From: Nocardioides sp.
Lineage (GTDB): Bacteria; Actinomycetota; Actinomycetes; Propionibacteriales; Nocardioidaceae
Reading direction: 5' to 3'
DNA: 46,329 bases
Assembly (NCBI RefSeq): GCF_034670285.1
Contig: NZ_JAXMNS010000001.1
Span: 1 to 46,329, forward strand
In this document: piece after piece, positions 6,436 to 27,684 of the stretch
Layout: the number at the start of each line of letters is the position of its first letter
Position numbering within the stretch: position 1 is the first letter of the stretch
Translations under genes and position numbers: made by a program
Notes under the pieces: generated by a model
Told to the model about the DNA's origin: nothing
Database searches by the model: none
What the model saw: the letters and a program-made list of their open reading frames with translations, nothing else

Positions 6436-7263
6436 TCAGCTTCTGCTGACCCGCTCTAGGTAAGCCTGGCGGGCAGCGTGGTCGACCCGGTCGAGGAAGA
6501 CCGTGTCGGTCCCGAGGAACGCGCCGAGCGGGGTTGCGAGCCGCTCGGGCACGAACTTCATGGCCGCGACCATGGAGCCCGCCACGCGTGTCACGCGCAC
6601 GAACGGCTGTGGTCGCTCGATGAGCGCCGCTGTCGCGCGCGCGATCTCCTCGGGCTCCGCGTTCCGCATGGCTTTGGCTCCACTCGTCCCGGCCACTAGT
6701 TCGGTGTTGGTGAAGGTCGGGCGCACCGTGGACAGGGTGACACCCGACTTGCGGTACTCCAGCCTGGCGGCCTCGGTGAAACCGATGACGGCGAACTTGG
6801 TGCCGCAGTAGGTCGCCAGACCCGGGACGGGGAGCTCGCCTGCGAGCGAGGCCGTGTTGATGATGTGCCCCTGGCGGCGCGGCAGCATCCGCTGCAGTGC
6901 GAGCTTGGTGCCGAAGATGACACCCAAGATGTTGATCTCCACCTGACGCCGGGTGACGTCATCGGCTTCTTCGTGAGTATGTCCGGTCGGCATCACTCCG
7001 GCGTTGTTGATGAGGACGTCGATGGCGCCGAGCGTTCCCTCGGTGACGTCAAGGAAGGAGGCGATCGACTCCGGGTCGGTGACATCCAGCCGAACGGCCA
7101 CCTCGACCCCGAGGTCCTCGGCGGCAGACTTGAGTTGCACCTCGTCGATGTCGCCGATCGCGACGCGGTGACCACGCCTGATGAGCTCCCTTGCTGTGTG
7201 GTAGCCGATCCCTCGAGCGCCGCCGGTGATGGCGACGACCCGTGATCCAGTGGTTGTCTTCAT
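6436..7263 (-). CDS. Short-chain dehydrogenase/reductase
   Basis: TGGARGIG, NNAG and YCGTK catalytic motifs. Confidence 0.92.
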   Translation of the reverse strand: MKTTTGSRVVAITGGARGIGYHTARELIRRGHRVAIGDIDEVQLKSAAEDLGVEVAVRLDVTDPESIASFLDVTEGTLGAIDVLINNAGVMPTGHTHEEADDVTRRQVEINILGVIFGTKLALQRMLPRRQGHIINTASLAGELPVPGLATYCGTKFAVIGFTEAARLEYRKSGVTLSTVRPTFTNTELVAGTSGAKAMRNAEPEEIARATAALIERPQPFVRVTRVAGSMVAAMKFVPERLATPLGAFLGTDTVFLDRVDHAARQAYLERVSRS

Positions 7264-7276
7264 GGTGCCTTTCCTT

Positions 7277-8785
7277 TCAGAGGCCGAGCCGCTGTCGCAG
7301 GCTGCGGCCGGCAGCCAAGCGCAGCGCGCGGCTGGCGATGGCCGTACGCCGGGCGGAGTACGGGTACCAGGTGAGTTCTTTGGTGGTCAGCGCGATTCGC
7401 GGCTCGGTGATGGCCTGCACGCGGCAGTACTTTCGCAAACCCTGTGCTCCACCTAGCCGTGCACCGAGACCAGAGGACTTCCAGCCGCTGTGCGGCAGCC
7501 CGACCGCGAACAGGTTGCTGAAGACGTCGTTGACATTGACTGCCCCCACGTCGAGCCGGTCGGCAATTCGCCGTCCGCGTGCAACGTCCCGTGTCCACAC
7601 CGTCGCTGAAAGGCCGTACTCGGAGTCGTTCGCCAGGCGCACCGCCTCCTCCTCGTTGGCTACCTTCATAACCGGCAGCGTGGGACCGAAGGTCTCCTCG
7701 GTCATGCACGCCATGCGGTGGTCGACGTCGACGAGCAGAGTCGGAGGGTAGAAGTGCCCCTTCGAGTCGCTGGCACCACCGACCAACACACGGGCCCCCG
7801 ACTTCCGGGCATCCTCTACGTGCCGCTCCACGGTCTCCACCTGCTCCCGGGTGACCATGGCCCCCACGTCATCGCGAGACCCGGAGCCTTGCTTGAGCGA
7901 TCCGAGCGCGGCCGCCACCTTCTCCACGAACTGGTCGTAGACCTCCTCGGCCACGTAGACCCGCTCGACGGAGATGCACACCTGGCCGGAGTTGAACATG
8001 CCGCCCCAGACGATTCCGTGCGCAGCGCGGTCCAGATCCGCGTCCTCAAGCACGATCGCGGCATCCTTACCGCCCAACTCCAGGCTGACCGGTTTGAGAA
8101 GTTCCGCGCAGCGCGTGGCCACCCTGCGCCCCGTCGCCGTGGATCCGGTGAACTGCACGAAGTCGACGGCCTCGACCACTGCTGCTCCCGTTTCCCCTGC
8201 GCCCGCAACATGAGCGATCACGGGCGGCGCACCGATCTCGTGCCAGCCCTCGATGACACGAGCGCAGGTCAGCGGCGTCAACTCCGAAGACTTCGTCAGC
8301 ACGGCACAGCCTGCGGCCAGCGCCGGTGCGGCATCCATGAGGAAGAGGGTGATGGGAAAGTTCCACGGGATAATGAGTCCCACCACGGGGTAGGGCCGGA
8401 AGGTACGGGTCAGCCGCTTGGGCAGGCTGAGCAACCCGCCCGCCGCGACCCTCTCAGGGGCGAGGAACTTCTTCGCCTGATCGGCGTAGTAGGAGATGAA
8501 CTCACACGAGGCCGTCGTCTCGACCAGCGCGTCGGGCCGGACCTTGCCTGTCTCTGCGACAAGCAGATCCGTTAGCTCGTCGGTGTGCTCAAGAATCCAC
8601 GTTCGCCAGCGGCGCAGCCACATCGCTCGCGCCGAAGGACCCATGCTCTGCCATTCAGCCTGCGCAGACCGGAGCCCGTCAGCGACCGTGTGTACGTGAG
8701 CGGCGTCCGCGACTGGCACCAAGCGGATGGCCCTCCCATCCGCGGGCCGGCGAATGTCAAGTGCGGAAGCGGACGATGCGTTCAT
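7277..8785 (-). CDS. Aldehyde dehydrogenase (502 aa)
   Basis: PWNFP, FTGSTATG, LELGGKD, GQVCISVER and EETFGP motifs. Start reassigned to ATG 8785; the longer ORF-track version overlaps mceG. Confidence 0.92.
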   Translation of the reverse strand: MNASSASALDIRRPADGRAIRLVPVADAAHVHTVADGLRSAQAEWQSMGPSARAMWLRRWRTWILEHTDELTDLLVAETGKVRPDALVETTASCEFISYYADQAKKFLAPERVAAGGLLSLPKRLTRTFRPYPVVGLIIPWNFPITLFLMDAAPALAAGCAVLTKSSELTPLTCARVIEGWHEIGAPPVIAHVAGAGETGAAVVEAVDFVQFTGSTATGRRVATRCAELLKPVSLELGGKDAAIVLEDADLDRAAHGIVWGGMFNSGQVCISVERVYVAEEVYDQFVEKVAAALGSLKQGSGSRDDVGAMVTREQVETVERHVEDARKSGARVLVGGASDSKGHFYPPTLLVDVDHRMACMTEETFGPTLPVMKVANEEEAVRLANDSEYGLSATVWTRDVARGRRIADRLDVGAVNVNDVFSNLFAVGLPHSGWKSSGLGARLGGAQGLRKYCRVQAITEPRIALTTKELTWYPYSARRTAIASRALRLAAGRSLRQRLGL

Positions 8786-8886
8786 GAGAGTTCCTATCGA
8801 GGTGCGCTGAGGGATGGAGCGGAGCAACGAGTCGAGCACCGGTCGAGCGTCGTCGACCAGGAGTGGCCGACTCAGGGTGCGTGCGA

Positions 8887-9834
8887 CTAGGTGACGCTGA
8901 CGAGGTCGGTGGCGAAGGAGCCTGGAGGCGGCGTGACACCGTTGTCGCGGCACCAGCCACCGGGCTCGCGCTGGCTGCGGCGCGGGATGCCGCTCGACGG
9001 CTCGATCTGCATCGGGATCGGCGGCAGCGGCGGCATCTCCTGGTCCTTCTCGGCCTCGAGCTCGTCGGCGTCCTTCTCCTCCGACATCCCGATCGGACCG
9101 ACGCGCTGGGCGTTGAGGAACTGACGCACCACCGGCTCCTGCGAGCTCAGCAGCATCTCGCGCGGGCCGAACATCGCGAGGTGCTTGTGGTAGAGCAAGC
9201 CGATGTTGTCGGGCACGGTGCGGGCGGTGTTGATGTCGTGGGTGACGATCAGGAACGTCGCGTCGATCTGAGCGTTCAGGTCGACGATCAACTGATTGAG
9301 GAACGCCGTGCGCACCGGGTCGAGGCCGGAGTCGGGCTCGTCGAAGAGCACGATCTCCGGGTCGAGCACCAGGCCACGGGCGATGCCGGCGCGCTTGCGC
9401 ATTCCACCGGAGATCTCACCCGGGAGCTTGTCCTCGGTGCCGAGGAGGCCGACGAGGTCCATCTTCTCCAGGACGATCTCGCGGATCTGCGACTCGGACT
9501 TCTTGGTGTGCTCGCGCAGCGGGAAAGCGATGTTGTCGTAGAGGTTCATGGAGCCGAACATCGCGCCGTCCTGGAACAGCACGCCGAACAACTTGCGGAT
9601 CTCGTAGAGGTCCTTCTCCGAGCACGAGGCGATGTCGGTGCCCTCGATGACGATCGAGCCGCAGTCGGGCTTCAGCAGACCGATAAGGGTCTTCAAGAAC
9701 ACCGACTTGCCGGTGCCGGACGGCCCCAGCATCACGCAGATCTCGCCAGCCGGGATCGTCAGCGAGACGTCCGCCCAGATGAGGCTCTTTCCGAAGCTCT
9801 TGGTGAGGTTGTCAACCTTGATCTCTACACCCAT
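8887..9834 (-). CDS. mceG: Mce-system ABC ATPase (MceG/Mkl)
   Basis: GPSGTGKS Walker A, ISGGMRKRAG signature, FDEPDSGLDPVR, and the Mkl-type C-terminus GPIGMSEEKD. Confidence 0.92.
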   Translation of the reverse strand: MGVEIKVDNLTKSFGKSLIWADVSLTIPAGEICVMLGPSGTGKSVFLKTLIGLLKPDCGSIVIEGTDIASCSEKDLYEIRKLFGVLFQDGAMFGSMNLYDNIAFPLREHTKKSESQIREIVLEKMDLVGLLGTEDKLPGEISGGMRKRAGIARGLVLDPEIVLFDEPDSGLDPVRTAFLNQLIVDLNAQIDATFLIVTHDINTARTVPDNIGLLYHKHLAMFGPREMLLSSQEPVVRQFLNAQRVGPIGMSEEKDADELEAEKDQEMPPLPPIPMQIEPSSGIPRRSQREPGGWCRDNGVTPPPGSFATDLVSVT

Positions 9835-9889
9835 GTCAGTCCTTCTGCTTTCGCGGTGAAGCCCTGCTGATACGGCCTGGGTCGACTCG

Positions 9890-10432
9890 TCATTTGGTCT
9901 CCAACCCGGCGATCTTCCAGGTTGACCCGACGCGTTGCATGGTGACGTCGACCCGACTGCCGCTCACCACGGGATCAGGGGAGTTCCGACTTGTGGTCGA
10001 CTGGGTCAGGAAGATGAGCAGCACGACCTCGTCGTTCTTCGTGGAGACCACGCCTGCCGCATTGACGCTCGCCTGTGTCGTGATCCGCCGATCTGTGGCG
10101 GTGTCGCGTACGACGTCGTCGAGCAGAGTCCGAAACTCTTCCGTGAAGGCGCCCGTGGTCTGGCCCAGTGCGGTCGCGAGATCCTCGTCCAAGGTGGTGT
10201 GACGGTAGCTGAGCAGCAGGGATATTCGTTCTCGACCGACGTTGAGCGCTTCGTCTCGGGCCGACGCCAGATCGTGGATTTGGCCGGTCCGCCACGTCGC
10301 GAACCCGGCAACGGTCGCGAAGACAATCGCCACGCTCAACAACAGCATGGACAGGCCGCGTCTGCGCCCATTTCCGGAGGAGGCAGAAACGGACTGATTC
10401 TCAGCGGAATGCTCGCTGGTCCTGTCGCTCAT
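9890..10432 (-). CDS. Mce-associated membrane protein (Mam)
   Basis: Single TM helix, LLSYRHTTL, LIFLTQST, WKIAGL; ATG 10432 overlaps the upstream stop (ATGA). Confidence 0.85.
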   Translation of the reverse strand: MSDRTSEHSAENQSVSASSGNGRRRGLSMLLLSVAIVFATVAGFATWRTGQIHDLASARDEALNVGRERISLLLSYRHTTLDEDLATALGQTTGAFTEEFRTLLDDVVRDTATDRRITTQASVNAAGVVSTKNDEVVLLIFLTQSTTSRNSPDPVVSGSRVDVTMQRVGSTWKIAGLETK

Positions 10433-10962
10433 GCCACGAACCGTAGGGTCGAGACCAACCACATGCCGTCAACCTGCTTGAACTCGACCTCGAGCCGATA
10501 GTTGCGTGGTTCTGGTTCTCCGGTGTTGAGGTTGTCGACGGATCCCTTCGCAGCCACGATGACCGTCGCTGCGTCGTCTTCAACGCTCACGACTCCCGTA
10601 GAGACGACCTCGCCCGTGGCCACAACCTCGTTCTTGATGACCTCGTCACGTATCCGACCGGCTTGCGCACGTAGGTCGTCGCGGAAGGACGCCGTAGCCC
10701 CGGCAATGAGCTCGTCAAGGTCCTCCGCCGTCGTCTCCGCGCTGATAGTGATCAGCCCTAAGACCTGCTTTTTCGCGGCCTCCACGACTTCGCTTCGTTC
10801 CTGCTCACGCTCGTGAGCGTCCCGCCACGCGACCCCGCGCTCCCATGCAGCGCCGGCCGCGAGGACGACGAGGAGAGTGACAACGACCTGCAGCCCGAGC
10901 GGACGCCATCCCCGCCACCAGGTTGTCGCCCTGTCCGCGAAGAACTCCCGGACGTTCTTCAT
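10429..10962 (-). CDS. Mce-associated membrane protein (Mam)
   Basis: Single TM helix, GATASFRDDL, PRNYRL...WLVSTLRFV; coupled to mceF. Confidence 0.85.
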   Translation of the reverse strand: MKNVREFFADRATTWWRGWRPLGLQVVVTLLVVLAAGAAWERGVAWRDAHEREQERSEVVEAAKKQVLGLITISAETTAEDLDELIAGATASFRDDLRAQAGRIRDEVIKNEVVATGEVVSTGVVSVEDDAATVIVAAKGSVDNLNTGEPEPRNYRLEVEFKQVDGMWLVSTLRFVA

Positions 10963-12281
10963 CGCGCCTCCAGCGGACCGAGCATCAGCATCTGCCAGCC
11001 CGAACGTTCTGCACTGTCCGGACTTGACGAGCCTTGCAACCCCCGGGCGAGATCAGACCCACGGGACGATCCCCGATTGTTGGGCCACACACCCTTCCCG
11101 AACTCGAGTCCGCAGGCCGACGGCAACGGACCGCGCTCCGCGCTTTGTGGGCACGGAAGGAGTCGGGCGCCCCGCACCGATTTGGGGTCCGGGTCAGGCA
11201 CCGTGCAGTGTGCCAACCGGTCAACCTTACGGACACCTTCGACCGAAGGGTCCCGCCGTTGACTCGCTGGCAAATAGCCCTGAGAGCAGGCGGGTGGGTT
11301 GTTGACATTGAGGCGAAGGTCAAGGTTGACGTCCCCGAACTCTTCCCTCGGGTTGATGGCGCTCTGAAGGCGCGCGACGGTGACCGGGTAGTAGACCAAG
11401 CCCTCCTGGATCTGCGGGAGGTATGTGTTGAGGACCTCGGCGTTCGTGGTCAAGTTGGTCACGAGGAGGGGAAGCGTCGGCTGGAGGTCGGTGACGAGTC
11501 CGGTGGCCGACTCCAGACCGTCGGGTGCTTCATCCAGCAGCGAGCGCAGGTCTCTGTCTCGGTCAGCGAGCTCTGCGGTGAAGGACGCGAGTGACTGTGC
11601 GTAGCTGAGGGTCGTGCCTCGCAATTCCTGCTGGGTGCCCAGGACAGGTTGTGCGGTCCTGATCAGTGACGTCGTCGCGGCCAGTCGCGCCTGCGCTGTG
11701 ATAATCAACTTGTCTGCTGCGTCGATCGTGGCCGCGAGGTCGGGACCGCTGCCCCCCAGTCCCTCATCCACCTGGTCGAGCACACGCCGGGTGCGTTCTC
11801 GTGGGATGGCGCCCAGCAGGTCGTTGACCGACTCCAAGACGGGGGTGATCTGCGGCATCGCGATCGTGCGCTCAGCAGGGATCAGGTCGCCGTCGGACAT
11901 GCTGGCGGACCCGCGCGCCTCGGAAGAGGCACGTGCGGGCGGCACCAGATCGACGTACTGCTCACCGATTGCGGACGTGCTGTGCAGTTCGGCGATCGCA
12001 TCGGCGGGGATGTCGTGCTGGTCGTCGATCCGCAAGGTCGCGACAGCACCACCGTCCTCGACCTCAAGGTCGGTGACCTCACCGACCTTGACACCCTGGT
12101 AGGTCACCATGGCCTTGGGGTACAGACCACTGGCGTCTGGGTATTCAGCACGAACTTCGTACACGCCGACGCCCATCATCGCCGGAACTCGTGCGTAGAC
12201 CACCGCGGCGAAGAAGAGGGCGACCACCGTGAGGGCCGCGAAGATGCGGAGTTGGCGCTTGATCAACGGGGTGAGAACCAT
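10959..12281 (-). CDS. mceF: MCE-family protein MceF
   Basis: ASGLYPKAMVTYQGVKVG and STSAIGEQYVDLVP; sixth mce gene; ATG 12281 overlaps the mceE stop (TAATG). Confidence 0.88.
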   Translation of the reverse strand: MVLTPLIKRQLRIFAALTVVALFFAAVVYARVPAMMGVGVYEVRAEYPDASGLYPKAMVTYQGVKVGEVTDLEVEDGGAVATLRIDDQHDIPADAIAELHSTSAIGEQYVDLVPPARASSEARGSASMSDGDLIPAERTIAMPQITPVLESVNDLLGAIPRERTRRVLDQVDEGLGGSGPDLAATIDAADKLIITAQARLAATTSLIRTAQPVLGTQQELRGTTLSYAQSLASFTAELADRDRDLRSLLDEAPDGLESATGLVTDLQPTLPLLVTNLTTNAEVLNTYLPQIQEGLVYYPVTVARLQSAINPREEFGDVNLDLRLNVNNPPACSQGYLPASQRRDPSVEGVRKVDRLAHCTVPDPDPKSVRGARLLPCPQSAERGPLPSACGLEFGKGVWPNNRGSSRGSDLARGLQGSSSPDSAERSGWQMLMLGPLEAR

Positions 12282-13495
12282 TAGCAGTCTCCTAGCAGTT
12301 GGAGGAGGCATAGGCCACCGCTGTCATTCGTGCCGTCGGCGCCCTGGTCGGCGTCGCCGCCCGATGCGCCGCCCCGAGTGCCCTTGTCCGCTTTGCTCTC
12401 TGTGCGGGGCTCTTCGATCGGTCCCGTCACGGGGTCCTCGGACTGCAACGACGGCAACTGATCCGTGCCCAGGAGCAGATCGACGAGACTGCGATTACTG
12501 ACGTCGATGGTGGCGAAGAGGTTGGAGTAGTCCCCTCGCAGCGTGTCCTCAGTGGTCATCGCCGGGAAGGGGATCGTGATCGCGATCTTCAGGGCCTCCG
12601 GCACCCGAGTGGCCGCCTTACCGAGGTTGCTCAAGACCGGGCCGAGCGCATCTAGGTTGGCCAGGATCGCTTCTTGACTTGCCTGAATCACCCCGACTGC
12701 GCGGGTGCTGGCTCGTCCGGAAGTGGTGACGGCGTCTACGAGACGAGCCCGCTCCTCCTCAAGCGCCTCGAGCCCCGGACCAATGCGGTCGATGGCGCGG
12801 GCAATCGTGTTTCGGTCGCCAGCCAACCCCTTGCTGAGCCTGTTGAGAGACTCCAGCGCCCTGACGATCTCCCCCTTCGTGTCGTCCAGGACGCCCAAGA
12901 GCTCGTTGGATCGCGTGACCAAGTCGCGGGTGTCCAACTCGCGCTCGTCTAGCGCTGTGGTCAGCTCACCGGTGATGGTGCTGATCTGGGAGAGCCCGCC
13001 GTTGTTGAGCAGCAACGCCACTCCCGCGAGCACCTGCTCGGTGGCCGGCGCCCGCCCCGTCCGGGCCAGAGGCACTTCGTCGCCCTCCGCGAGGAGACTC
13101 GACGGGACCTCCCCGGTTGTCGCGGCAGGATTGTCCACATCGACGTATTGGGCGCCGAGCAGTGTTTTCTGTCCGATGGTGAAGCGCGCTGTACTACTGA
13201 TCGGCATCGAATCCAGCAAACGGATGTTGGCCACCGCATGCCAGTCCTCGACCTCGATGGAGGCCACGGTTCCGACGACGACGTCGTCGAGGAGCACCTG
13301 GGAGTTCGGGACGAGGTTCTCCACGGCGTCGAAGTGCACGGTCACGGAGTAGCCGTCATCCCCCGTGGCAACCTGCCCGGGCAGCGTGTTCTCGTTCGGC
13401 TGCAGAGCGCAACCGGATATCAGCGGGAGAACCGCCATGGCGGTGGCACACACATGCGCCGCGCTCCACTTCCGGCGAACAGTGCGGGTGGTCAT
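12281..13495 (-). CDS. mceE: MCE-family lipoprotein MceE
   Basis: Lipobox-like LISGC, NLVPNSQV, QKTLLGAQYV, LLNNGGLSQI; fifth mce gene. Confidence 0.88.
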   Translation of the reverse strand: MTTRTVRRKWSAAHVCATAMAVLPLISGCALQPNENTLPGQVATGDDGYSVTVHFDAVENLVPNSQVLLDDVVVGTVASIEVEDWHAVANIRLLDSMPISSTARFTIGQKTLLGAQYVDVDNPAATTGEVPSSLLAEGDEVPLARTGRAPATEQVLAGVALLLNNGGLSQISTITGELTTALDERELDTRDLVTRSNELLGVLDDTKGEIVRALESLNRLSKGLAGDRNTIARAIDRIGPGLEALEEERARLVDAVTTSGRASTRAVGVIQASQEAILANLDALGPVLSNLGKAATRVPEALKIAITIPFPAMTTEDTLRGDYSNLFATIDVSNRSLVDLLLGTDQLPSLQSEDPVTGPIEEPRTESKADKGTRGGASGGDADQGADGTNDSGGLCLLQLLGDC

Positions 13496-14703
13496 GGCTT
13501 ACCTCCAGTACTGCCGGTCAGCAGGAAACCGAGGCTTTGCAGGAGATCGATCTCAACACCAGCGAGACCCGGAATCGGGAGGTCTTCCCCGTCACCGGGC
13601 TCACCGACGTTGATGCCCGGGACCAGGTCTTGGTCCAGCGAGCCCAAGCCCAGCGACTCCAGCAGCGGCTCAAGCACCTGGGTGCACTGGGCAGCAGTCC
13701 CGCCTGCCCCGAGGATCGCGCCGCACAGTAGCTGCGGGAGGCTATCGAGCGCGCTGAGCGTTGCGCGCCCCTTCAGGGCGGAACCCTCCACGATATTGGC
13801 CAGGTTGATCAGGGCGTTGGTACCGATGTGCAGCGAACCCGCCAGTTCATTGGATCGGTCTGCGAGCGCCGCAGAGAGGAGGTTGACTCGTCGGACCGCG
13901 GTCGAAATCCCCTGACCGTTGGCATCGGTGAAGTTGCGGACCGTCTTCAACGTCACTGCTAGGTCACGCAGGACGCTGGTCAGGGCGAAACGATTGCGCT
14001 CGAGCACCTCACCCACGGAATCGATCTCCGAGGCGAAGCCCCGAACGGCTCGATCGTTCAGCGCGAGCGCGCGGGTGAAGGTATCGAGGTTCTCGACGGT
14101 TGAGAAGAGGTCTGACCTCGGGTTCGAGAGAGCCTCGGCCGACGTCCGAAGACCGGCGATCGCTCGACGCAGTTCGGCGGCGTTACCCTCGTCGAGGCCT
14201 TTGTCGAGAGCCACGACCGCTCTCGAGAGGGCACCCCGCCCGGCACCCGGGCGCGGCCCCAATGCTCCGGTCAAGTCGGTGAGTTGTTGCTTGACATCGT
14301 CGAAGGTGACCGGCACCGCCGTGCGGTCGATGCCGATTTCGGCTCCGTCTTCAAGCACCGGTCCGCCGGTGTAGACCGGCTCCAGCTGGACGAATCGACC
14401 GCTGACCAGGCTCGGTGACACGATGGCCGCTCGTGCGTCTGCGGGGATCGGCTGGTTCTCGTCGATAGCGAGCTCGACCTTCACGCCAGCCTCACCAGGC
14501 ACAACCTTTCGAATAGTGCCTACACTCACCCCCAGCACCCGGACGTCGTCCCCGGGGTAGAGGCCCTCGGCGCTACTGAAAGTCGCCGACACCGTCCTTT
14601 GGCCGGCCCCTCCGACCAAGGTGATGCCGACAGCTACTAAGAGTCCAAGCACGAGAAGAACGATCGGGCTACGCAGTGTGCGAGCGTGCGACAAGGCGGT
14701 CAC
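13492..14703 (-). CDS. mceD: MCE-family protein MceD (native start GTG 14703)
   Basis: GLYPGDDVRVLGVSVG and SPSLVSGRFVQL; GTG overlaps the TGA of the mceC C-terminal frame (GTGA). It forms the last part of the 737-aa ORF. Confidence 0.85.
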   Translation of the reverse strand: MTALSHARTLRSPIVLLVLGLLVAVGITLVGGAGQRTVSATFSSAEGLYPGDDVRVLGVSVGTIRKVVPGEAGVKVELAIDENQPIPADARAAIVSPSLVSGRFVQLEPVYTGGPVLEDGAEIGIDRTAVPVTFDDVKQQLTDLTGALGPRPGAGRGALSRAVVALDKGLDEGNAAELRRAIAGLRTSAEALSNPRSDLFSTVENLDTFTRALALNDRAVRGFASEIDSVGEVLERNRFALTSVLRDLAVTLKTVRNFTDANGQGISTAVRRVNLLSAALADRSNELAGSLHIGTNALINLANIVEGSALKGRATLSALDSLPQLLCGAILGAGGTAAQCTQVLEPLLESLGLGSLDQDLVPGINVGEPGDGEDLPIPGLAGVEIDLLQSLGFLLTGSTGGKP

Positions 14704-18713: not shown

Positions 18714-18714
18714 C

Positions 18715-19587
18715 TCAGGCCCCCAACTTGATCTGCAGAAACAGCGCGCTGATGACGCTATTGGCCGCGAACAGGAGCATGAAGGCGAAGACGACGGTCT
18801 GGTTGACCGCGTCCCCCACGCCCTTCGGGCCACCCTTGGCGTTGAGCCCCAGGTAGCACGCGGTCAGGCCAGCCAGCATGCCGAAGACGGCCGCCTTGAT
18901 CTCTGAGGTGACGAAGTCCTCCAACCCGACGAGCAGAGTGAGGTCGGCGATGTAGAGGCCCGGGGTAGCACCTTGGAGGATGACGGAGAAGACGTAGCCG
19001 CCCACCAAGCCCACCACAGTGACCATGCCGTTCAGCGCGACGCCGACGAGCATGGAGGCCAGTACGCGGGGCACGACCAGCCGCTGGATGGGATCGATGC
19101 CGAGGGTCACCATCGCGTCGATCTCGTCCCGGATCTTGCGTGAGCCCAGGTCCGCGCAGATCGCTGTGGCGCCGGCACCGGCGACGACGAGCACGCTGAC
19201 GATCGGCCCAATCTCTCGTACGACCGCGACCGCCGCACCCGCGCCCGCGAGGTCGACGGCTCCAATCTGGATCAATAGCTGGTTGACCTGGAAGATGATG
19301 ACGACGCAGAAAGGGATCGCGACCAGCAGTGCGGGAGCGAACGACACGGTCGTGATGAACCACGCCTGGGAGACGAACTCGCGGAAGCGGAACTGACGAG
19401 TGAACATCTGCTTGAAGACGTTCCCGACGAACGAGTAGAAGTCGCCGACGGCGGCGAGCACATTGAAGACGGTGCTCGAGCGCAGCGCGTCACGAGCAAT
19501 CTGGCGCGACGCAGGAGTCATGCCGCTGGGCCCTGTGCCGGCGGGGGATTCCTGCGCCGAGGGCACGGCGGGGAGCGTCGTGCTCAT
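18715..19587 (-). CDS. yrbEA: YrbEA/MlaE permease
   Basis: AGAGATAICADLGSRKIRDEIDAM and KGGPKGVGDAVN. Confidence 0.92.
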   Translation of the reverse strand: MSTTLPAVPSAQESPAGTGPSGMTPASRQIARDALRSSTVFNVLAAVGDFYSFVGNVFKQMFTRQFRFREFVSQAWFITTVSFAPALLVAIPFCVVIIFQVNQLLIQIGAVDLAGAGAAVAVVREIGPIVSVLVVAGAGATAICADLGSRKIRDEIDAMVTLGIDPIQRLVVPRVLASMLVGVALNGMVTVVGLVGGYVFSVILQGATPGLYIADLTLLVGLEDFVTSEIKAAVFGMLAGLTACYLGLNAKGGPKGVGDAVNQTVVFAFMLLFAANSVISALFLQIKLGA

Positions 19588-19920
19588 CGTTTCTCATCCA
19601 TGTCCACCGGGACTGCCTGGTAGGGCAGCCGAATCCAATTCGCGTGGTCTTGTTGCGGAGCGGGCTGCGGGCGCCGTGACGCGAAGCGCTCGACGTCGCA
19701 GTCGTTGTGCACCCAGCCCGTTGAGGGGCTGTACGGGAAAGCCATTTCCACGCTCCTCAGGACGCAATGTGTATGTATGTGCATTCAGAAGACAAAAAAC
19801 GCGATCTGATGTGATGCCTATTACAGGACCATCCAGAGCTCAGCGTCTCGTCGGCCGCACCAACCGCCCCCTCCTGTGTTGTACGTTTGCACAGAATTGA
19901 CGTGAGCAGAGGGAGCGCAC

Positions 19921-21165
19921 ATGAGCGGTCAACCGTCCGCGTGGGTACGGCAGTGGGTGAAGGATTTCGTATCCGTTGAAGAGCAGGTCCCCCAGGTGGA
20001 GGCCTGGGTGGCGCGAACAGCCGCGTCTATCATGAGCGCCATCCCAGAACTGGCCAGCAGGCATGACCTGGTCGGCGAAATCGATCGGGGCATCCGCGAG
20101 CACTGGATCGCTTTTTTGCGCGAACTCGATCGAGCAGAAATGCACTTCGAACTGGTCCCGAGCGCTCAACGAATCGCTCACCAGGCGGCGGAGACCTCCC
20201 TTCCGCTGGAGACCCTCGGGCGCGTGTACCGGGTCGCCCAGCGAAGCACGTGGTCCTACGTGACGAGCCTGATGTCAGATGTCCACGGGTCCGAAACGGA
20301 CCGCACCGAACTGATCATCTTCTTGTGGGAGAGAGCCGCTCAGTGGATTGACAGCTCGGTCGACGAATCGGTCCGGATCTATCAAGATGCCCGGCAGCGA
20401 AACGAGATCGGGACGAACGCCTTGCGGTACGAGGTCGTCTCTCAGCTGCTGCAGGGTGACTTGTCGGATGCCGCAAGGGCCTCGGCAGACCTTGGCGGCT
20501 ACGCCATCAGGAGCTTCAACACGGCTCTGATCCTGTCTTCGCAGGAGCACTACGACTACGCCATCGATGCGCTGGAGGAGATCGGCCGCGACCTGGCCCG
20601 GCAGGTCCAAGCCAAGCACCCCCTGGTGGTGCGCCCGGGAGGGCGTCGTGTCTGGGTGTGGCTGGCGACCCAGCATGAGCCCGCCGCTCCCCTACGGTCT
20701 GATCTCGTAGGAAGCCTCGATGAGCGCGCCCGCATTGCTGTTGGGCCAAGCAGGAGGGGGATCTCGGGCTTCGTGGAGTCTCATCACCTCGCGCAGCGGG
20801 TAGCGGAGGTGACCAGCGGTCATGGTCACGGAGTCCTGAACTTCCGAGAGCTTGAGTTGGTCGTCCTCCTGGGCTGCAGCCGAGATGTCGACATGTTCGT
20901 CCGCCGAACCCTCGGCAACCTGGCCGACCCGTCAGCCCACGCGCAACGCCTGCGTGACACCGTGACTTCATTCATCCGGCAGGGCACGAGCATCGATGCA
21001 GCCGCACAAGAACTGGTGGTCCACCGCAATACTGTGCGCTACCGTCTCCAGCAGGCCACCAAGTTGCTCAGAGATGATTTGATCCCGTCAAGTCCCGAGG
21101 TCTCGCTCGCATTGCGTCATTTTGAGGTCTGCCATCACAGCGACTCCGCGGATCTTCAGGCATGA
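19921..21165 (+). CDS. PucR/CdaR-family transcriptional regulator
   Basis: C-terminal HTH AAQELVVHRNTVRYRL; 414 aa; divergent from the mce operon. Confidence 0.88.
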   Translation: MSGQPSAWVRQWVKDFVSVEEQVPQVEAWVARTAASIMSAIPELASRHDLVGEIDRGIREHWIAFLRELDRAEMHFELVPSAQRIAHQAAETSLPLETLGRVYRVAQRSTWSYVTSLMSDVHGSETDRTELIIFLWERAAQWIDSSVDESVRIYQDARQRNEIGTNALRYEVVSQLLQGDLSDAARASADLGGYAIRSFNTALILSSQEHYDYAIDALEEIGRDLARQVQAKHPLVVRPGGRRVWVWLATQHEPAAPLRSDLVGSLDERARIAVGPSRRGISGFVESHHLAQRVAEVTSGHGHGVLNFRELELVVLLGCSRDVDMFVRRTLGNLADPSAHAQRLRDTVTSFIRQGTSIDAAAQELVVHRNTVRYRLQQATKLLRDDLIPSSPEVSLALRHFEVCHHSDSADLQA

Positions 21166-21199
21166 CCCACGACTATTGTCGCCGGCTGCTGATCTGGGT

Positions 21200-21890: not shown

Positions 21891-21903
21891 GAGCCGATTG
21901 TTC

Positions 21904-23532
21904 TCAGAGATCGATCACGGCGAGATCGCCACGGGCGTGCATGGCCCGTAGAAGCTTCTTGTCGAACTTTCCCACGGAGGTCTTGGGCACCTCGGCGACG
22001 AAACACCACCGCTCGGGGAGCCACCACTTCGCGACCTTGCCCGTGAGGAACTCGCGCAAATGATCTGGCGCGACGGTGGCGCCGTCGCGCGCGACGACCA
22101 CCGCTAGTGGACGCTCCTGCCACTTCTCGTCCGGCACCCCGATCACCGACGCCTCGAGTACGTCGGGATGGCCGGCGAGCAGGAGTTCCAACTCCACCGA
22201 GGAGATCCACTCCCCCCCGGACTTGATCACGTCCTTCGCGCGGTCTGTCAGAGTGACGAAGCTGCGCTCGTCAATGCGCCCGACGTCTCCGGTGCGCAAC
22301 CATCCTCCGTCGAACTTCTCTGCGTCCTCCTCACCGACGTAGGAACCAGTGATCCAGGGACCGCGCACCTGGATCTCGCCGACTGACTCCCCGTCGTGCG
22401 GGACCACGCTGCCTTCGTCGTCCATCAGTCGCAACTCGACACCGGCCACGGGCCGACCCTGAGTCGCCCGCAGCGCCCAATGCTGCTCGGGGTCGAGCGC
22501 CGCGGGCGGCCTCGCGATCGCGGCCAGCGGAGATGTCTCGGTCATCCCCCACGCCTGGACGATGCGCACGCCGTACTTGTTCTCGAACGCCTGCATCAGG
22601 TGGAGCGGCACAGCAGAACCACCACAGGCGACCAATTGCAGAGACGACACGTCATGCTCCGGGTTTGCCTCCAGATAGTTCAGCACGTCGCTCCAGATGG
22701 TCGGGACCGCCCCCGCGATCGTCGGCCGCTCTGCCGAGACCAGCCGAACTATGGGTTCGGCTTGGAGGAACCGGTCCGGCATCAACAAATCCGCGCCAGC
22801 CATGAACGCTGCGTAGACTAGGCCCCACGCGTTGGCGTGAAACATCGGCACGATGGCCAACACACAGTCGTCACCCGTGACGCTCAGACCGTCTGCGGCG
22901 CAGGCCGCCATGGAGTGCAGGTAGGTGGATCGGTGACTGTAGGCGACGCCCTTGGGGTTGCCGGTGGTGCCGGAGGTGTAACACATGGCAGCAGCGGAGA
23001 CCTCGTCGACCTCGGGCCAGTCGAACGTCTCAGGGTGACCGGCGAGAAATTCTTCGTAGCCCAGCACGGTGACCCCATCGCGGCGCAGTGGCGTCAGGTC
23101 GATCTGACCGGTCACGATAACGGTGTGGACACTGGGGATCTGCGGCAGCGCGGGAGCGAGGAGGGGCGCGAGACTGCCGTCAAGTATGACGACCTTGTCC
23201 TCGGCGTGATTTCCGATGTATACGAGTTGCTCCGCAGTCAGCCGGGGGTTCAAAGTGTGCAGCACCGCGCCCATCGACGGAACTGCGCAGTAAGCCTCGA
23301 CGTGTTCCTGGTTGTTCCACATGAACGTGGCCACCCGCTCGTCGCCAGTGACGCCGCAGGAGCGTAAAGCGTGGGCCAACTGTGCGGATCGGCGACCTAC
23401 CTCGGCGAAGCTACCGCTCCTGACGGTCCCGTCGGGCTGCAGGGTTCGCACCCGCGCCGAACCGTGGATGGTTGTTCCGTGACGCACGATCGCGGCCGTG
23501 GTCAGCGGAATGTTCATCATCGTGCTCTGCAT
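21904..23532 (-). CDS. Fatty-acid--CoA ligase (AlkK/DmdB-like adenylate-forming enzyme)
   Basis: YTSGTTGNPKG, WGMTETSP, DRAKDVIKSGGEWISS, PKTSVGKFDK; ATG 23532 follows GAAGGA. Confidence 0.92.
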   Translation of the reverse strand: MQSTMMNIPLTTAAIVRHGTTIHGSARVRTLQPDGTVRSGSFAEVGRRSAQLAHALRSCGVTGDERVATFMWNNQEHVEAYCAVPSMGAVLHTLNPRLTAEQLVYIGNHAEDKVVILDGSLAPLLAPALPQIPSVHTVIVTGQIDLTPLRRDGVTVLGYEEFLAGHPETFDWPEVDEVSAAAMCYTSGTTGNPKGVAYSHRSTYLHSMAACAADGLSVTGDDCVLAIVPMFHANAWGLVYAAFMAGADLLMPDRFLQAEPIVRLVSAERPTIAGAVPTIWSDVLNYLEANPEHDVSSLQLVACGGSAVPLHLMQAFENKYGVRIVQAWGMTETSPLAAIARPPAALDPEQHWALRATQGRPVAGVELRLMDDEGSVVPHDGESVGEIQVRGPWITGSYVGEEDAEKFDGGWLRTGDVGRIDERSFVTLTDRAKDVIKSGGEWISSVELELLLAGHPDVLEASVIGVPDEKWQERPLAVVVARDGATVAPDHLREFLTGKVAKWWLPERWCFVAEVPKTSVGKFDKKLLRAMHARGDLAVIDL

Positions 23533-23618: not shown

Positions 23619-24821
23619 TCAGTCCGCTGCGATCTGCAGCAGCTCGGCGCGGTCGACTTCGAGACCTTCGGTGATCTTCTGCTTGCTTCGCATGAAGTCG
23701 CGCGGTCGGTTGACGCAGTCGGCTGCGATCAGCCTCTGCTCACGCAGGTAGAAGCAGGTGAAGTCGCGGTCTAGTGTCGGGTCGCCGCTGAGCAGGATCT
23801 CGTCGTACCCGGCGCTCAGGCCGGCGATCTGGAGCTTGAGGTCGTACTGGTCGGACCAGAACCACGGCAGCGCGGCGATGGTCTTCTCCTTGCCGCACAT
23901 CGATGCCGCCGCGGCTTTTGCCTGCTCGCCGGCGCTGGGCACCGACTCCAGCCGGATTCTGCGCCCGTAGCGCGTCATCCAGTGGCTGGTGCAGTCGCCT
24001 GCCGCGACGATGTCGGTGTCGCTGGTGCGGGCGTTGTCGTCGATGACGACGCCGTCATCAACGACAAGGCCTGCGGCCGCGGCTAGCTCGGTGTTCGGCT
24101 CGATCCCCACGCCGATGACCACGAGGTCGGCGCGAAGTCGCTCCCCGCCGGCGAGCTGGACCTCACGGACGCGATCTTCGCCTGTCATGGCCTCGACCAG
24201 GGCGCCGGTGCGGATCGTGACACCCGCCTCGCGGTGGATCCGCTCGTAGAAGGCCGACACCTCTGGCGCCGTGACCCGCATCAGCACCCGCTCGGCGGCT
24301 TCGAGGACGGTGACGTCCAGGCCCAAGGCAAGGAGGGATGCTGCGGTCTCCAGTCCGATGTATCCGCCGCCCACGATCACCGCGTGGCACCCCGGCTGCG
24401 CCGACTCCCTGATCTGTTCCACATCGGCAAACGTGCGCAGGTAATGGACGCCCGGGAGATCGGCTCCCGGGACCGGAAGCAGCCGGGCCCGCCCGCCAGT
24501 GCACAGCGCGAGCTTGTCGTAGGACACGCTGCGACCGTCAGCCATTACGAGCCGGCGCTCTGCTCGCTCGATCGACTCCACGTGAGCATCGAGCAGCTCG
24601 ATCTCCTGCTTCGCGTAGAAGTCCGGCTTGCGGATCGCCAGCTCGCCGATGGCGCTCTTTCCCGACAGGTAGGCCTTCGACAGCGGCGGCCGGTGGTACG
24701 GAAGGACTGCCTCGTCGCCGATGAGGACCACTCGCCCGGACCACCCCTGCTGACGCAAGCCCGCCACCACCTGCGCGCCGGCGTGACTGGCTCCGACGAC
24801 AAGTGCGGTCCCCTGCGTCAT
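23619..24821 (-). CDS. fdr: Ferredoxin reductase
   Basis: VGASHAG, PYHRPPLSK, GGGYIGLE, PWFWSDQY; ATG 24821 overlaps the CYP stop (ATGA). Confidence 0.93.
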   Translation of the reverse strand: MTQGTALVVGASHAGAQVVAGLRQQGWSGRVVLIGDEAVLPYHRPPLSKAYLSGKSAIGELAIRKPDFYAKQEIELLDAHVESIERAERRLVMADGRSVSYDKLALCTGGRARLLPVPGADLPGVHYLRTFADVEQIRESAQPGCHAVIVGGGYIGLETAASLLALGLDVTVLEAAERVLMRVTAPEVSAFYERIHREAGVTIRTGALVEAMTGEDRVREVQLAGGERLRADLVVIGVGIEPNTELAAAAGLVVDDGVVIDDNARTSDTDIVAAGDCTSHWMTRYGRRIRLESVPSAGEQAKAAAASMCGKEKTIAALPWFWSDQYDLKLQIAGLSAGYDEILLSGDPTLDRDFTCFYLREQRLIAADCVNRPRDFMRSKQKITEGLEVDRAELLQIAAD

Positions 24822-26209
24822 GCTGGGGCCTTCGGGGTCAGGCGCACCGTGAGCTTGCTGATTCCTCTGACGAAGTTGGACTGGACGTACTCCGGCTCGT
24901 CGACGACCTCGATCTTCTCGAAGCGGGTCAGCAGTTCCTCCCACAGGATCCGCAGCTGCATCTCGGCCAGGCGGTTGCCCATGCATCGATGCACGCCGAA
25001 GCCGAACGCGATGTGGTTGCGGGCGTTCTTGCGGTCGATGACGAGTTCGTCGGGTCGCTCGAAGACCCGCTCGTCGCGGTTGCCCGAGGCGTACCACATG
25101 ACGAGCTTGTCGCCCTTGCGGATGAACTGTCCGTTGAGGACGATGTCCTTCTTGGCGATCCGGCGCATGTAAGCCAAGGGGGTCTGCCACCGGATGATCT
25201 CCGAGACCATGTTCGGGATGAGGTCGTGGTTCGCCTTCAGTTTCTCGAACTGTTCGGGGAACTGGTTCAGCGCCAGCACGCCGCCACTCATCGAGTTCCG
25301 CGTGGTGTCGTTGCCCCCGACGATGAGCAAGGTCAGGTTGCCCAAGAACTCCATCGGACGGTCGATGAGGTCCTTGGTGTCCTCGTTGCTCTGTAGCATC
25401 GTAATGAGGTCGAAGCCGGGCTCCTCCCCTGCAGCGAGGCGCGCCTTCTTGTCGTGCCACAGCGCGCTGAGACCGCGCGCCATGTCGGCGATGCCGCGGA
25501 AGACCTCGTCGTTGTCCGAAGGCCCTCCGTTCGCCTGCTCCATCGAGCTCGCCAGGTCAGACCATTCGACGAGCTTGTTTCGCTGCTCGTAGGGGAAGTC
25601 GAGCAGCGTGGCCAGCATCCGCGCCGTGAGTTCGATCGAGACCCGATCAACCCAGTTGAAGGGTTGGTCGAGCGGAAGCTCGTCCAACACCTCCTTAACG
25701 CGGGATCGGATCAGGCCTTCCATCTCGCGCAGGTTCTTGGGCGCGACAACTCCCTGCACCGCCGCCCGCTGCAGGTCGTGTCGCGGCGGGTCCATCGCGA
25801 TGAACATGGCCAGGTCCATGAACCGCGGCGGCTCGCCAATGACGATGAAAGGCTCGGCGGAGAAGGCCTCATGGTTCTTGTCGACGGCGATGATGTCGGC
25901 ATGGCGGGTAACCGACCAGAACGGTCCGAAAGGGCTGTTGGCCTGGTAGTGCACGGGTGCCTCGTTGCGCACCCGCTCGAAGTAGGACTGCCACCGGCCC
26001 TGCCGGTACAGAAAGGGGTTGCTCAGGTCGATGTCGGCGAGCTCAACCTCGTCCACCGGAGGGATCGGCTGCTCGACGAACATCTTCTGACCATCGGTCC
26101 GAGTCACCCATCGTCGCGTCTTGTCGTAGAGATGTGCCCCGCGGATCTGCACCTCCATCGGAACGACCGACTTGACCTTCTCACCAATATCTTCTGCAAC
26201 GTTGAACAT
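24818..26209 (-). CDS. cyp153A: CYP153A alkane terminal hydroxylase (cytochrome P450)
   Basis: CYP153 hallmarks MFIAMDPPRHD, LLIVGGNDTTRNS, EIIRWQTPLAYMRR and heme motif FGFGVHRCMG; fdx-cyp-fdr gene order. Confidence 0.95.
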   Translation of the reverse strand: MFNVAEDIGEKVKSVVPMEVQIRGAHLYDKTRRWVTRTDGQKMFVEQPIPPVDEVELADIDLSNPFLYRQGRWQSYFERVRNEAPVHYQANSPFGPFWSVTRHADIIAVDKNHEAFSAEPFIVIGEPPRFMDLAMFIAMDPPRHDLQRAAVQGVVAPKNLREMEGLIRSRVKEVLDELPLDQPFNWVDRVSIELTARMLATLLDFPYEQRNKLVEWSDLASSMEQANGGPSDNDEVFRGIADMARGLSALWHDKKARLAAGEEPGFDLITMLQSNEDTKDLIDRPMEFLGNLTLLIVGGNDTTRNSMSGGVLALNQFPEQFEKLKANHDLIPNMVSEIIRWQTPLAYMRRIAKKDIVLNGQFIRKGDKLVMWYASGNRDERVFERPDELVIDRKNARNHIAFGFGVHRCMGNRLAEMQLRILWEELLTRFEKIEVVDEPEYVQSNFVRGISKLTVRLTPKAPA

Positions 26210-26231
26210 CAACAGTCCACCTTCTCTTCAG

Positions 26232-26552
26232 TCACATCTGGAACTCGGGCAGGTGGACGGTGAGCCCGTCCCAGCCGTCGGACACGTTCATCTGGCACGA
26301 GAGGCGCGAGGTCGGCTGACGCTCGGGATTCATCGACAACATCTCTTCCTCGACGGGGCCGGACCCACCCACCGTGTCGGCCCACTGCGCGTCGACGACC
26401 ACGTGACAGGTGCCGCAGGCGGCCTCGCCACCGCAGTCGCCGTCGATGCCAGGGACCCCGTTGTCTACCGCGACCTGCATGAGCGTCTGGCCGTCTTCGA
26501 GCGGCGCCTCGTGGTTCTCGCCGTCGTACGACACGAAAGTGACAGCTGCCAT
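26232..26552 (-). CDS. fdx: 2Fe-2S ferredoxin (putidaredoxin type)
   Basis: DCGGEAACGTCH...SRLSCQ; ATG 26552 is properly spaced from GAGGAG. Confidence 0.95.
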   Translation of the reverse strand: MAAVTFVSYDGENHEAPLEDGQTLMQVAVDNGVPGIDGDCGGEAACGTCHVVVDAQWADTVGGSGPVEEEMLSMNPERQPTSRLSCQMNVSDGWDGLTVHLPEFQM

Positions 26553-26615
26553 GGTGACCATCTCCTCACTGGAATTGTCCTTCCACTATTGGCCCCGGCC
26601 TTTGCATGTGGCTAT

Positions 26616-26650
26616 GGTCACCAGAGTCATAAGATTGTGATTTCGGGTCA
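26616..26650. promoter_or_regulatory. Candidate AraC-regulator binding repeats upstream of fdx
   Basis: GTCA at 26617, 26626 and 26647 plus GTGA at 26637: two imperfect direct units about 20-21 bp apart. Confidence 0.4.
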
Positions 26651-26661
26651 GGGGTTGATGC

Positions 26662-27684
26662 GTGAGGAACGACGAAGCCGGGGTTCCCCCGTTGGCATTC
26701 GTGCAGCTACTCAATAGCGGTGCGCTGGATGCCGGCTCGGTAGCCCACTTCCGCCGCATCGTCGCCGCTCAGTTCACGTCCGAGATGGAACTGGTCGAAC
26801 GCAACGTGCAGGTCCCCGTGCGGTGGTTCCGCGAGGTCTATCCAGACCTGGCCACCGACAGCGGCACCTCGCTCGGCTTTGCGTTCGCCGAACAGGCACA
26901 GCTGACCTCCTTCGGACCTCTCAGCCTCCCGCTGGTCAGCGCCAGTTCGGTGTCCGAGATCTTCGAACTGCTCGGCTACCTGCCCGTCATCTCAACGGCG
27001 CTGCGCCCCCACTTCCATCACAGCGAGCGTGGACTGACAGTCGGACTGAGCGGTCACACCGGTGATCCCGCCCTCGATTGCCTGGTCATCGCGTACGCCG
27101 GCTCAGCCCTGCTGCGGCTGCTCGACATACTGGCGGGCACCCTCCCCGCAGTGACACTCAATCTGGGCTGGGCGGCACCCCGATCACAGCCGCGACCCGA
27201 AAACACCTTCGGCGCAAGAATTGTTTTCGACTCGCCCGCATCCTTCGTGGACGTTCCCGCCAACATCCTGGGCACGCCTTGCCGGTTCTCCGACCCGGTG
27301 GCCTACCGCTTGGCCATCAACGAGCTGCGGCGCACCCTGGACCGACGCAGCACTCCCAACAGCTTCACCGAACATGTGAGGCGCTTGCTCGAGCAGGACC
27401 CAGGACGCCACCGCGGCTGCGAGGTGGCGAGACTGCTTTCCGTGTCTCCCAGCACCATGAAACGGCGACTGAACGCAGAAGGGACGACGTTTCGTGACGT
27501 CCGTCAGTCGTTGCTACGCGAGCGTGCGATCCTGCGGCTGCTCGACCGCTCGATGTCCGTCAGCCAGATCGCTGCAGACCTCGGCTACGGAGACCTCACG
27601 AACTTCTCACACGCCTTCAAGCGCTGGACCGGGCAGTCCCCCAGCGAGTTCCGGAACGTCGGCGGCCTCGGACGGGACGAGTAA
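26662..27684 (+). CDS. AraC-family regulator, CypR-like (activator of CYP153 operons)
   Basis: C-terminal IAADLGYGDLTNFSHAFKRWTGQSPSEFR; divergent from fdx-cyp153-fdr, as known for Dietzia. Confidence 0.88.
   Translation: MRNDEAGVPPLAFVQLLNSGALDAGSVAHFRRIVAAQFTSEMELVERNVQVPVRWFREVYPDLATDSGTSLGFAFAEQAQLTSFGPLSLPLVSASSVSEIFELLGYLPVISTALRPHFHHSERGLTVGLSGHTGDPALDCLVIAYAGSALLRLLDILAGTLPAVTLNLGWAAPRSQPRPENTFGARIVFDSPASFVDVPANILGTPCRFSDPVAYRLAINELRRTLDRRSTPNSFTEHVRRLLEQDPGRHRGCEVARLLSVSPSTMKRRLNAEGTTFRDVRQSLLRERAILRLLDRSMSVSQIAADLGYGDLTNFSHAFKRWTGQSPSEFRNVGGLGRDE

Follow-up and report, generated by a model that had tools for sequence, protein, structure and literature searches.

A clade of Mce transporters in Nocardioidaceae is linked in position to two unrelated kinds of alkane hydroxylase

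Uptake proteins that serve alkane hydroxylation have been named in Gram-negative bacteria, where AlkL, FadL, AupA and OmpT are outer-membrane proteins, whereas uptake by Gram-positive bacteria is not fully elucidated and is represented by unvalidated candidates only, according to passages of a 2025 Dietzia paper (PMC12472514). Mce systems are ATP-binding cassette (ABC) transporters for which only fatty acids and cholesterol are well supported as cargo, and their substrate range is an open question (PMC13492129). Excerpts on the Mce1 structure describe a 310-Å complex with a hydrophobic tunnel of 7–11 Å that takes several chains in parallel (PMC9882608). One review, drawing on Rhodococcus proteomics, proposes that polyethylene-derived alkanes, alcohols and acids are taken up by MCE transporters; in the passages considered, it gives neither a locus or clade nor a link to a hydroxylase or a genetic test (PMC13327627). 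A 2026 Mce review uses neither "alkane" nor "Nocardioides" (PMC13492129), and the sampled omics literature on hydrocarbons and polyethylene contains no occurrence of "mce". Our literature search, which covered few subscription papers, turned up no publication that connects mce operons with alkB or CYP153. Here we analyze a 46,329-nucleotide (nt) stretch of a Nocardioides sp. genome (assembly GCF_034670285.1, contig NZ_JAXMNS010000001.1), called the window below and the reference for all coordinates, which carries an Mce operon beside a CYP153A cluster.

Between 19587 and 6436 of the minus strand, Pfam and NCBIfam place, in this order, yrbEA, yrbEB, mceA to mceF, two small open reading frames (ORFs), an ABC ATPase gene, an aldehyde dehydrogenase (ALDH) gene and a short-chain dehydrogenase (SDR) gene. 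Junctions range from −4 to 101 nt, the widest lying between mceG and the ALDH gene. Two MlaE/YrbE permeases followed by six MlaD/MCE-domain genes, together with an Mkl/MceG ATPase with intact motifs, make this an actinobacterial Mce ABC transporter, which by homology would import lipids at the expense of ATP. A ferredoxin (fdx), P450, ferredoxin reductase (fdr) and acyl-CoA ligase cluster lies on the same strand at 26561–21904, and each operon has a divergent regulator gene, PucR-like for mce and AraC for fdx–CYP153A. Family matches and coordinates thereby confirm the gene order, the overlapping or short junctions and the divergent regulators claimed in an initial annotation of the window.

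Mce1 (PDB 8FED; PMC9882608, in part) has the same YrbEAB, MceA–F and MceG parts. Window YrbEA and MceG find their best matches in Mce1 subunits, and the alignment of MceA, though distant (157 bits), spans both ring and needle. The window locus differs from Mce1 in having no evident mycolic acids in its host, a 3′ mceG inside the operon, a PucR-like regulator and a link to alkane hydroxylases; passages of PMC1810536 place mce1 in Mycobacterium only, and our trees held no Mce1 rows. Housekeeping mce operons linked to mkl also have an ATPase gene beside yrbE–mce (PMC1810536, in part), but there mceG lies upstream, whereas the window copy lies downstream and was probably captured; their Mce subunits belong to a different branch and are about 32% identical to those of the window. 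CYP153A operons with CypR, in Dietzia DQ12-45-1b and on Rhodococcus plasmids, share the araC ← → fdx–cyp153–fdr arrangement; most lack an Mce cassette, and the passages seen of PMC12472514 describe none with one. The window system, predicted to be a multi-subunit ABC tunnel, is also unlike the Gram-negative uptake proteins, and no homology between them is expected. AlkL- and FadL-type channels are passive barrels. The architecture is that of a standard actinobacterial Mce system, and what is new is that a single Nocardioidaceae clade is tied to two unrelated kinds of alkane hydroxylase.

A search of 400 genomes of the genus (E ≤ 1e-75), in which four candidates were scored per genome and copies may be missed, found 53 clade copies in 47 genomes. 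A class-wide search returned 4 of 401 genomes, namely three Nocardioides and one borderline 41% match whose locus (L216) has no hydroxylase, so that within the class the clade turned up in this genus only; overall it was found in Nocardioidaceae only. In a four-protein tree, the 39 control operons (non-clade mceA loci among the matches listed, mostly chosen on long contigs) all fall outside a single branch that unites 57 clade rows with a support of 1.00. Within 20 kb, 40 of the 53 copies have a hydroxylase gene: CYP153 in 19, and an AlkB–rubredoxin fusion in 21, lying 4.6–8.1 kb upstream of mceA in 20 copies and at 19 kb in one. Contig ends interrupt two further copies, and in each case another contig end carries the half that matches. 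Over a matched span of 10 kb upstream and about 10 kb downstream of mceA, CYP153 or AlkB occurs at 32/53 clade copies and at 0/39 controls, and none of the 39 control operons has a ChoD-like or PucR-like gene.

The AlkB partners are desaturase-plus-rubredoxin proteins, and all five inspected are true AlkB–rubredoxin fusions with the NYxEHYG motif (as NYMEHYG), the histidine boxes and a match to solved AlkB (8f6t, E 2e-156). The CYP153 partners fall into identity groups of 66–67%, 75% and 84–89%. Parsimony puts AlkB at the root with six AlkB/CYP153 switches and four losses of linkage; some inner nodes of the tree used are weakly supported, and its root had no formal test. The CYP153 link that had been claimed stands for 19 of 53 copies but not as an exclusive partnership, AlkB–rubredoxin being as common and, to judge from the tree, looking ancestral. 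An Aeromicrobium locus on the earliest branch (L062, MceA 36% identical) has both CYP153 and AlkB, and the geometry hydroxylase → ← pucR / → mce is maintained across the switch. Because the genomes are kin, the number of events weighs more than the counts. At genome level, clade and CYP153 co-occur in 33/47 genomes versus 23/353, a contrast confounded by kinship and by AlkB-linked members, and alkB is present in 318/400 genomes and so uninformative; we therefore relied on position as evidence.

Of eight genome loci with MceA 75–81% identical, six keep the window order from araC to the SDR gene and two end at an upstream contig edge. Among metagenome loci, some of them duplicates, the upstream order is found in five, four others being too short. 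Close Mce homologues thus keep synteny, and the wider clade is hydroxylase-linked, rather than occurring mostly without alkane genes. Twenty CYP153 loci fetched without a neighboring clade copy have no mce genes within 10 kb; one of them reads fdr–fadD–ALDH–SDR and two read fadD–[mceG remnant]–ALDH–SDR. Since these Mce-less loci keep fadD–ALDH–SDR, pucR–mce–mceG makes up an optional cassette whose place is between fadD and ALDH, the ALDH and SDR genes being part of the CYP153 cluster.

The PucR/CdaR-like regulator gene (19921..21165, plus strand; PF13556, PF17853) diverges from yrbEA and is kept across the clade. Between it and the mce operon lies an operator-like motif (19847..19893, minus strand) of the form TGTGC-N6-ACAA ... 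TTGG ... CGAG, a pattern made by eye from these intergenic regions. It matches once in the 3.7-Mb genome, at 31/56 clade loci, a count partly owed to the pattern's derivation from those regions, and at 0/39 control loci. In sister loci the motif-bearing promoter region is followed by a ChoD-like oxidase gene and then yrbEA; in window-type loci yrbEA follows directly and ALDH and SDR close the operon. Both layouts place candidate alcohol- or aldehyde-oxidizing genes in the same orientation as the transporter.

We propose that Mce systems of this clade are ATP-driven importers of long-chain alkyl compounds, meaning alkanes and their alcohols, for terminal oxidation, a reading we hold with a probability of about one half. 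MceA–F would form an Mce1-like hydrophobic needle across the hydrophilic wall of a cell that has no outer membrane, and YrbEAB, with MceG as motor, would hand the chain on to the membrane or the cytoplasm. The 1-alkanol would be made by CYP153A with Fdx and FdR, or by AlkB–rubredoxin in sister loci, a reaction known for these families, and an SDR or ChoD-like oxidase, then ALDH, then FadD could carry it to acyl-CoA, as families and gene order suggest. The PucR-like protein would activate the mce operon at the conserved operator, with AraC separately controlling the hydroxylase. The pucR–yrbEAB–mceA–F–mam–mam–mceG cassette, which lies between fadD and ALDH, travels on integrative elements, and the extra mceG may free it from dependence on a new host's ATPase. 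More tentative, and in our view doubtful, is the stronger proposal that the clade is a dedicated ATP-driven importer of long-chain alkanes in Gram-positive bacteria, a functional counterpart of AlkL/FadL whose Mce needle would take apolar hydrocarbons across the wall of a cell that lacks an outer membrane. Such an importer would accept AlkB and CYP153 alike as partner and, equipped with a captured ATPase, would spread between species on integrative elements. A clade that tracks hydroxylases of two unrelated chemistries offers a specific, deletable candidate for Gram-positive alkane uptake. Cultured strains have it, among them Nocardioides (Pimelobacter) simplex ATCC 6946 (L038), and it bears on the role of Mce needles where there is no outer membrane, as well as on the turnover of oil, wax and plastic-derived alkanes.

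Several observations weigh against import of alkanes and alkanols. The known Mce cargoes carry polar heads. The cassette is dispensable, which speaks against an essential role: it lies within 20 kb of 19/72 CYP153 copies, leaving 53/72 without it; most genomes with alkB lack the cassette; and of 35 listed CYP153 plasmids from actinobacteria, 30 give no match to MceA. Four alkB loci fetched for the Mce-linked subtype (L229, L230, L231, L232) all keep pucR and lack the clade mce genes. Eleven of the 53 clade copies have neither hydroxylase in the fetched DNA (at least 10 kb upstream) and adjoin beta-oxidation, CoA-transferase, ALDH or carboxylase genes, and the genomes are related, so that linkage counts are not independent draws. 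The same pattern scan found no operator-like motif upstream of the CYP153 operon. A pucR-driven operon that holds alcohol- and aldehyde-oxidizing genes and not the hydroxylase would fit oxidation products as cargo equally well. One of the four alkB loci, L230, keeps choD as well as pucR.

Oxidation products are the cargo in the alternative that survives best, which we nevertheless consider unlikely: alkanes would partition into the membrane, and Mce would take up or recapture only 1-alkanols, fatty acids or wax esters, supplied by leakage from hydroxylating cells or by co-occurrence with alkanes in natural waxes. The separate regulator and operator of the mce operon, the ChoD-like, ALDH and SDR genes co-oriented with it and the beta-oxidation genes beside the 11 hydroxylase-free copies all favor such a role. 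Genes for WS/DGAT lie near several clade loci, and the Rhodococcus plasmid version reads ALDH–SCP2–FadD–mce. Mce1 itself imports fatty acids (PMC9947336, in part). A fatty-acid importer, however, could do without close linkage to the hydroxylase of the first step, and here that link has been re-made with two unrelated hydroxylases.

A role in tolerance, in which the transporter moves membrane lipids or clears alkane or alkanol from the envelope and does not feed the cell, seems improbable. Gram-negative bacteria have systems of this type in Mla/Ttg2 and LinKLMN; MlaF/Ttg2A and MlaE are homologues of the ATPase and permeases of the window, and envelope protection would likewise select for hydroxylase linkage. 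Against it stand the catabolic dehydrogenases in the same operon, the lack of an evident mycolic outer layer and the grouping of Mkl ATPases with importers (PMC1810536, in part). The view that an unrelated lipid importer is a chance neighbor, co-inherited with alkane genes on catabolic islands, draws on the IS-rich mosaic nature of these islands, the optional cassette and the gene order shared by kin, but is very improbable given that the link is found in 0/39 other mce operons, recurs, in varying gene orders, with AlkB and two or more subtypes of CYP153, and is accompanied by a PucR gene and operator conserved throughout the clade.

Indirect evidence suggests that the clade operon is not a sterol importer. 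The Mce4 sterol importer of N. simplex (KR76_12195–12230) shares the architecture and a catabolic link to a hydrophobic carbon source; according to excerpts of PMC7593942 it is sterol-induced and lies in the predicted KstR regulon. The supplement of that paper lists in row order KR76_01195 (PucR-like group), 01200 (choD), 01205 (yrbEA) and 01215 (mceA), and in the parts considered KR76_01200, the first gene of the sister operon (KR76_01200–01220), is uninduced by cholesterol or lithocholate. N. simplex protein P0059 is identical to L038 MceA and probably corresponds to KR76_01215. No steroid-ring genes were found among the neighbors scanned.

The ATPase gene (mceG/mkl, 8887..9834, minus strand) matches 8fed_G at E 3e-130 and has Walker A, ISGGM, Walker B and the H-loop intact. 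It is 92.6% identical in DNA and 96% in protein to the host's housekeeping mceG (contig C134), with other loci at 89% DNA identity or less, and in a 51-row MceG tree the two pair with a support of 1.00. Where present, clade mceG copies lie downstream of mce and are dispersed among housekeeping copies in this tree; most sister-clade operons have no mceG within 3 kb downstream. In 24/39 control mce operons mceG lies upstream of yrbEA, the position that passages of PMC1810536 give for mce-linked mkl/mceG in non-mycobacterial actinomycetes. The window copy was likely captured from the housekeeping gene and, as it groups with that gene, would be a general motor with no sign of a special mechanism. 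An in-operon ATPase gene is thus present as had been claimed, but it is not special, mce-linked mkl being already known and most of the clade lacking one. At another locus (L077, 17270–20360), the cassette mceG runs directly into housekeeping-type yrbEA–yrbEB–mceA, either a mis-join via near-identical mceG copies or real recombination, and at L018 (8767–9702) and L052 (18165–19155) mceG is in several pieces, perhaps through frameshifts or assembly errors.

The operon lies on a tRNA-integrated mobilizable element, as had been proposed. A tyrosine integrase gene (37444..38745, plus strand; PF00589), whose ORF crosses the att core, and a MOBF (TrwC) relaxase–helicase gene (33937..36783, plus strand; PF08751 E 2e-49, NF041492 over cut-off) adjoin a tRNA-Glu gene (38691–38764, minus strand). 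The 48-bp att core (38689..38736) is the 3′ end of this tRNA, and an identical direct copy lies at 3693–3740 of contig C261, at a GC step from 71% on one side to 64% on the other. Bases 1–38690 have 65.8% GC against 70.8% in the right flank and 70.6 ± 1.1% in 101 other long contigs; the whole assembly has 3.7 Mb in 586 contigs at 70.6% GC. No coupling-protein or mating-pore genes were found among the scanned window ORFs, the island middle between C261 and the window start being unassembled. The integrase ORF passes the 48-bp core and ends two residues later in tRNA sequence, whereas at the far end of the island (L014, C261 3693–3780) its frame would extend 11 residues, so that excision would change the integrase C-terminus.

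Relatives indicate that the block has been transferred between genomes. It is 99.5–100% identical among G074, G231, G232 and G424, whose gltX genes are 78–94% identical, and 98.3% identical between G072 and G214, with gltX at 81.7%; several genomes compared are binned assemblies, and mis-binning could account for single cases. This argues for the transferable uptake-plus-oxidation block that had been suggested, with the cargo a matter of prediction. The block of G231 sits among insertion sequences (IS), where a scan of the ORFs showed no integrase; the carrier element is thus not constant. Named close homologues of the locus come from Nocardioides or Pimelobacter, and genomes assigned to the same genus carry these loci too, which makes the host a Nocardioides. 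Near-identical copies of the block occur in runs of 13 studies of seawater, soil and plastic, although three of the rows possibly stem from the source sample. Runs X4 and X7 cover the island to the att core and hardly any host flank; we left them uncounted for mobility, taking the uncovered part as no evidence. Their contigs also lack 2603 bases of the window mmpL (29297–31901).

The host appears to lack mycolic acids, as the initial annotation had supposed: Pks13 was not found (best score 101 bits against a cut-off of 2100), in a search where one control passes the cut-off and a Corynebacterium control is listed among the matching genomes. To our knowledge, Nocardioides lack mycolic acids. 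MmpL3 was dropped as a test for a mycolic envelope when no control genome reached its cut-off.

Within the operon, all genes lie on the minus strand. The yrbEA permease gene (18715..19587; PF02405 E 3e-60) has M. smegmatis YrbE1A as its top PDB match (8fed_I, E 4.5e-76), and the ATG of yrbEB (17886..18713; PF02405 E 9e-58) lies 1 nt past its stop. Residues 11–355 of the mceA product (16711..17880; PF02470 and PF11887) align with 21–371 of Mce1A (8fed_A, E 7e-45). PF02470 is found in mceB (15669..16709), mceE (12281..13495) and mceF (10959..12281), with TIGR00996 over cut-off for mceB and mceF. The mceE product is a likely lipoprotein, with a LISG-C behind a signal-like start that we take to be a lipobox. 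The two small ORFs after mceF (10429..10962 and 9890..10432) have no family match and keep their position in the clade, by which they are candidate mam genes. A sigma-70 scan returned no promoters and terminators at chance level only, and there was no RNA run among the listed runs carrying the block, a lack that carries no information on expression.

The mceC gene (14700..15672) is frameshifted in the assembly by a 14-nt deletion after 15252, its halves, which are adjacent in relatives, standing in different frames. It meets mceD (13492..14703) in a GTGA overlap. Contigs of 4/4 sequencing runs from four studies carry 14 extra bases at the lesion, with no more than 11 other differing bases in the listed pieces of up to 8.6 kb; two of the four runs may be the source sample. 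The mceC gene is intact in the samples of those four runs, and since the 14 bases are present in all of them, the lesion is private to this assembly or strain. Repair of mceC, previously thought necessary for uptake assays, is not needed because intact alleles exist. A 737-residue ORF reads from the 5′ half of mceC in frame into mceD, whose MlaD domain is the second in it; we rejected a fused MceC–D protein, as this ORF is an artefact of the deletion.

In the hydroxylase cluster, CYP153A (24818..26212, minus strand) matches 5fyf (E 1e-213), 8b2p, an "alkane hydroxylase" (E 2e-208), and CYP153A7 3rwl (E 8e-136), which makes it an alkane or fatty-acid omega-hydroxylase. Some CYP153A enzymes act on fatty acids; for the window enzyme, alkane activity is predicted from its family. 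It is 82–88% identical to plasmid-encoded P450s (Rhodococcus 87.7%). With the 2Fe-2S ferredoxin gene fdx (26232..26561, minus strand; PF00111), fdr (23619..24821, minus strand; PF07992, PF14759) and a CypR-like AraC activator gene (26662..27684, plus strand; PF12833, PF12625; NF053784 CypR E 4e-24, under cut-off), it forms a CYP153A alkane hydroxylase system. The acyl-CoA ligase is a long-chain fatty-acid type (fadD, 21904..23532, minus strand; NF004837 666 bits, cut-off 476). The gap of 740 nt between pucR and fadD (21166–21903) is far shorter in several relatives and is possibly an insertion remnant.

The ALDH (7277..8785, minus strand; PF00171 E 7e-135) is GabD2-like, with NF006916 under cut-off, and in CYP153 clusters without Mce it comes after fadD or fdr. 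The SDR (6436..7263, minus strand; NF005878 over cut-off) is a candidate alkanol dehydrogenase. To call this a full alkane oxidation pathway, as had been done, overstates it: the CYP153A system is present, and the substrates of SDR and ALDH are presumed from their families. A ChoD-like flavin adenine dinucleotide (FAD) oxidoreductase gene (4637..6346, plus strand; GMC domains; NF058674 591 bits, cut-off 850) encodes a candidate long-chain alcohol oxidase and has weak local matches at most to solved cholesterol oxidases. On these matches and the N. simplex induction data we set aside cholesterol oxidation. Its 58–65% paralogue stands first in the mce operon of most sister loci, so that a type of 83–88% identity goes with the CYP153 cluster and one of 58–65% with the mce operon. 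Another ChoD-like and GabD2-like ALDH pair lies elsewhere in the host genome (L160, contig C306).

The host also has a second CYP153 (70%) and an AlkB–rubredoxin-type gene (65% to L038) on contigs C277 and C283, short contigs without an mce match. Desaturase–reductase–ferredoxin fusions near L050, L051 and L037 were rejected as AlkB, two inspected lacking NYxEHYG and that of L050 having no AlkB match at E 1e-15. These fusions lie at 17856–19856 of L050 and 2915–4918 of L051, and a 69% relative of the N-terminal part is on host contig C5.

Around the operons, BtrH-like, transglutaminase-like and thioesterase genes (1425–3963) accompany CYP153 in many Nocardioides clusters, and the first two also lie beside CYP153 on Rhodococcus and Mycolicibacterium plasmids. 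TetR, MmpL and second P450 genes (28066–33140) recur beside CYP153 clusters. On the host side, at 43443–45210, a pentapeptide-repeat protein gene sits beside a biotin-synthase-like radical SAM gene.

Plasmid-borne Mce operons are not rare, and a separate Mce lineage lies 14–45 kb from CYP153 on 5/31 Mce-bearing plasmids (plasmid CYP153 counts being among the matches listed, 60 of 94 records). Rhodococcus pRB11 reads ALDH–SCP2–FadD–yrbE–mce–mam–ATPase, then araC–fdx–P450–fdr. In the Rhodococcus plasmid loci L163 and L164, an alcohol dehydrogenase, a ferredoxin, an R2-like ligand-binding oxidase, a two-component pair, ALDH, SCP2, FadD, mce and a 3′ ATPase make up a second candidate module for long-chain lipid uptake.

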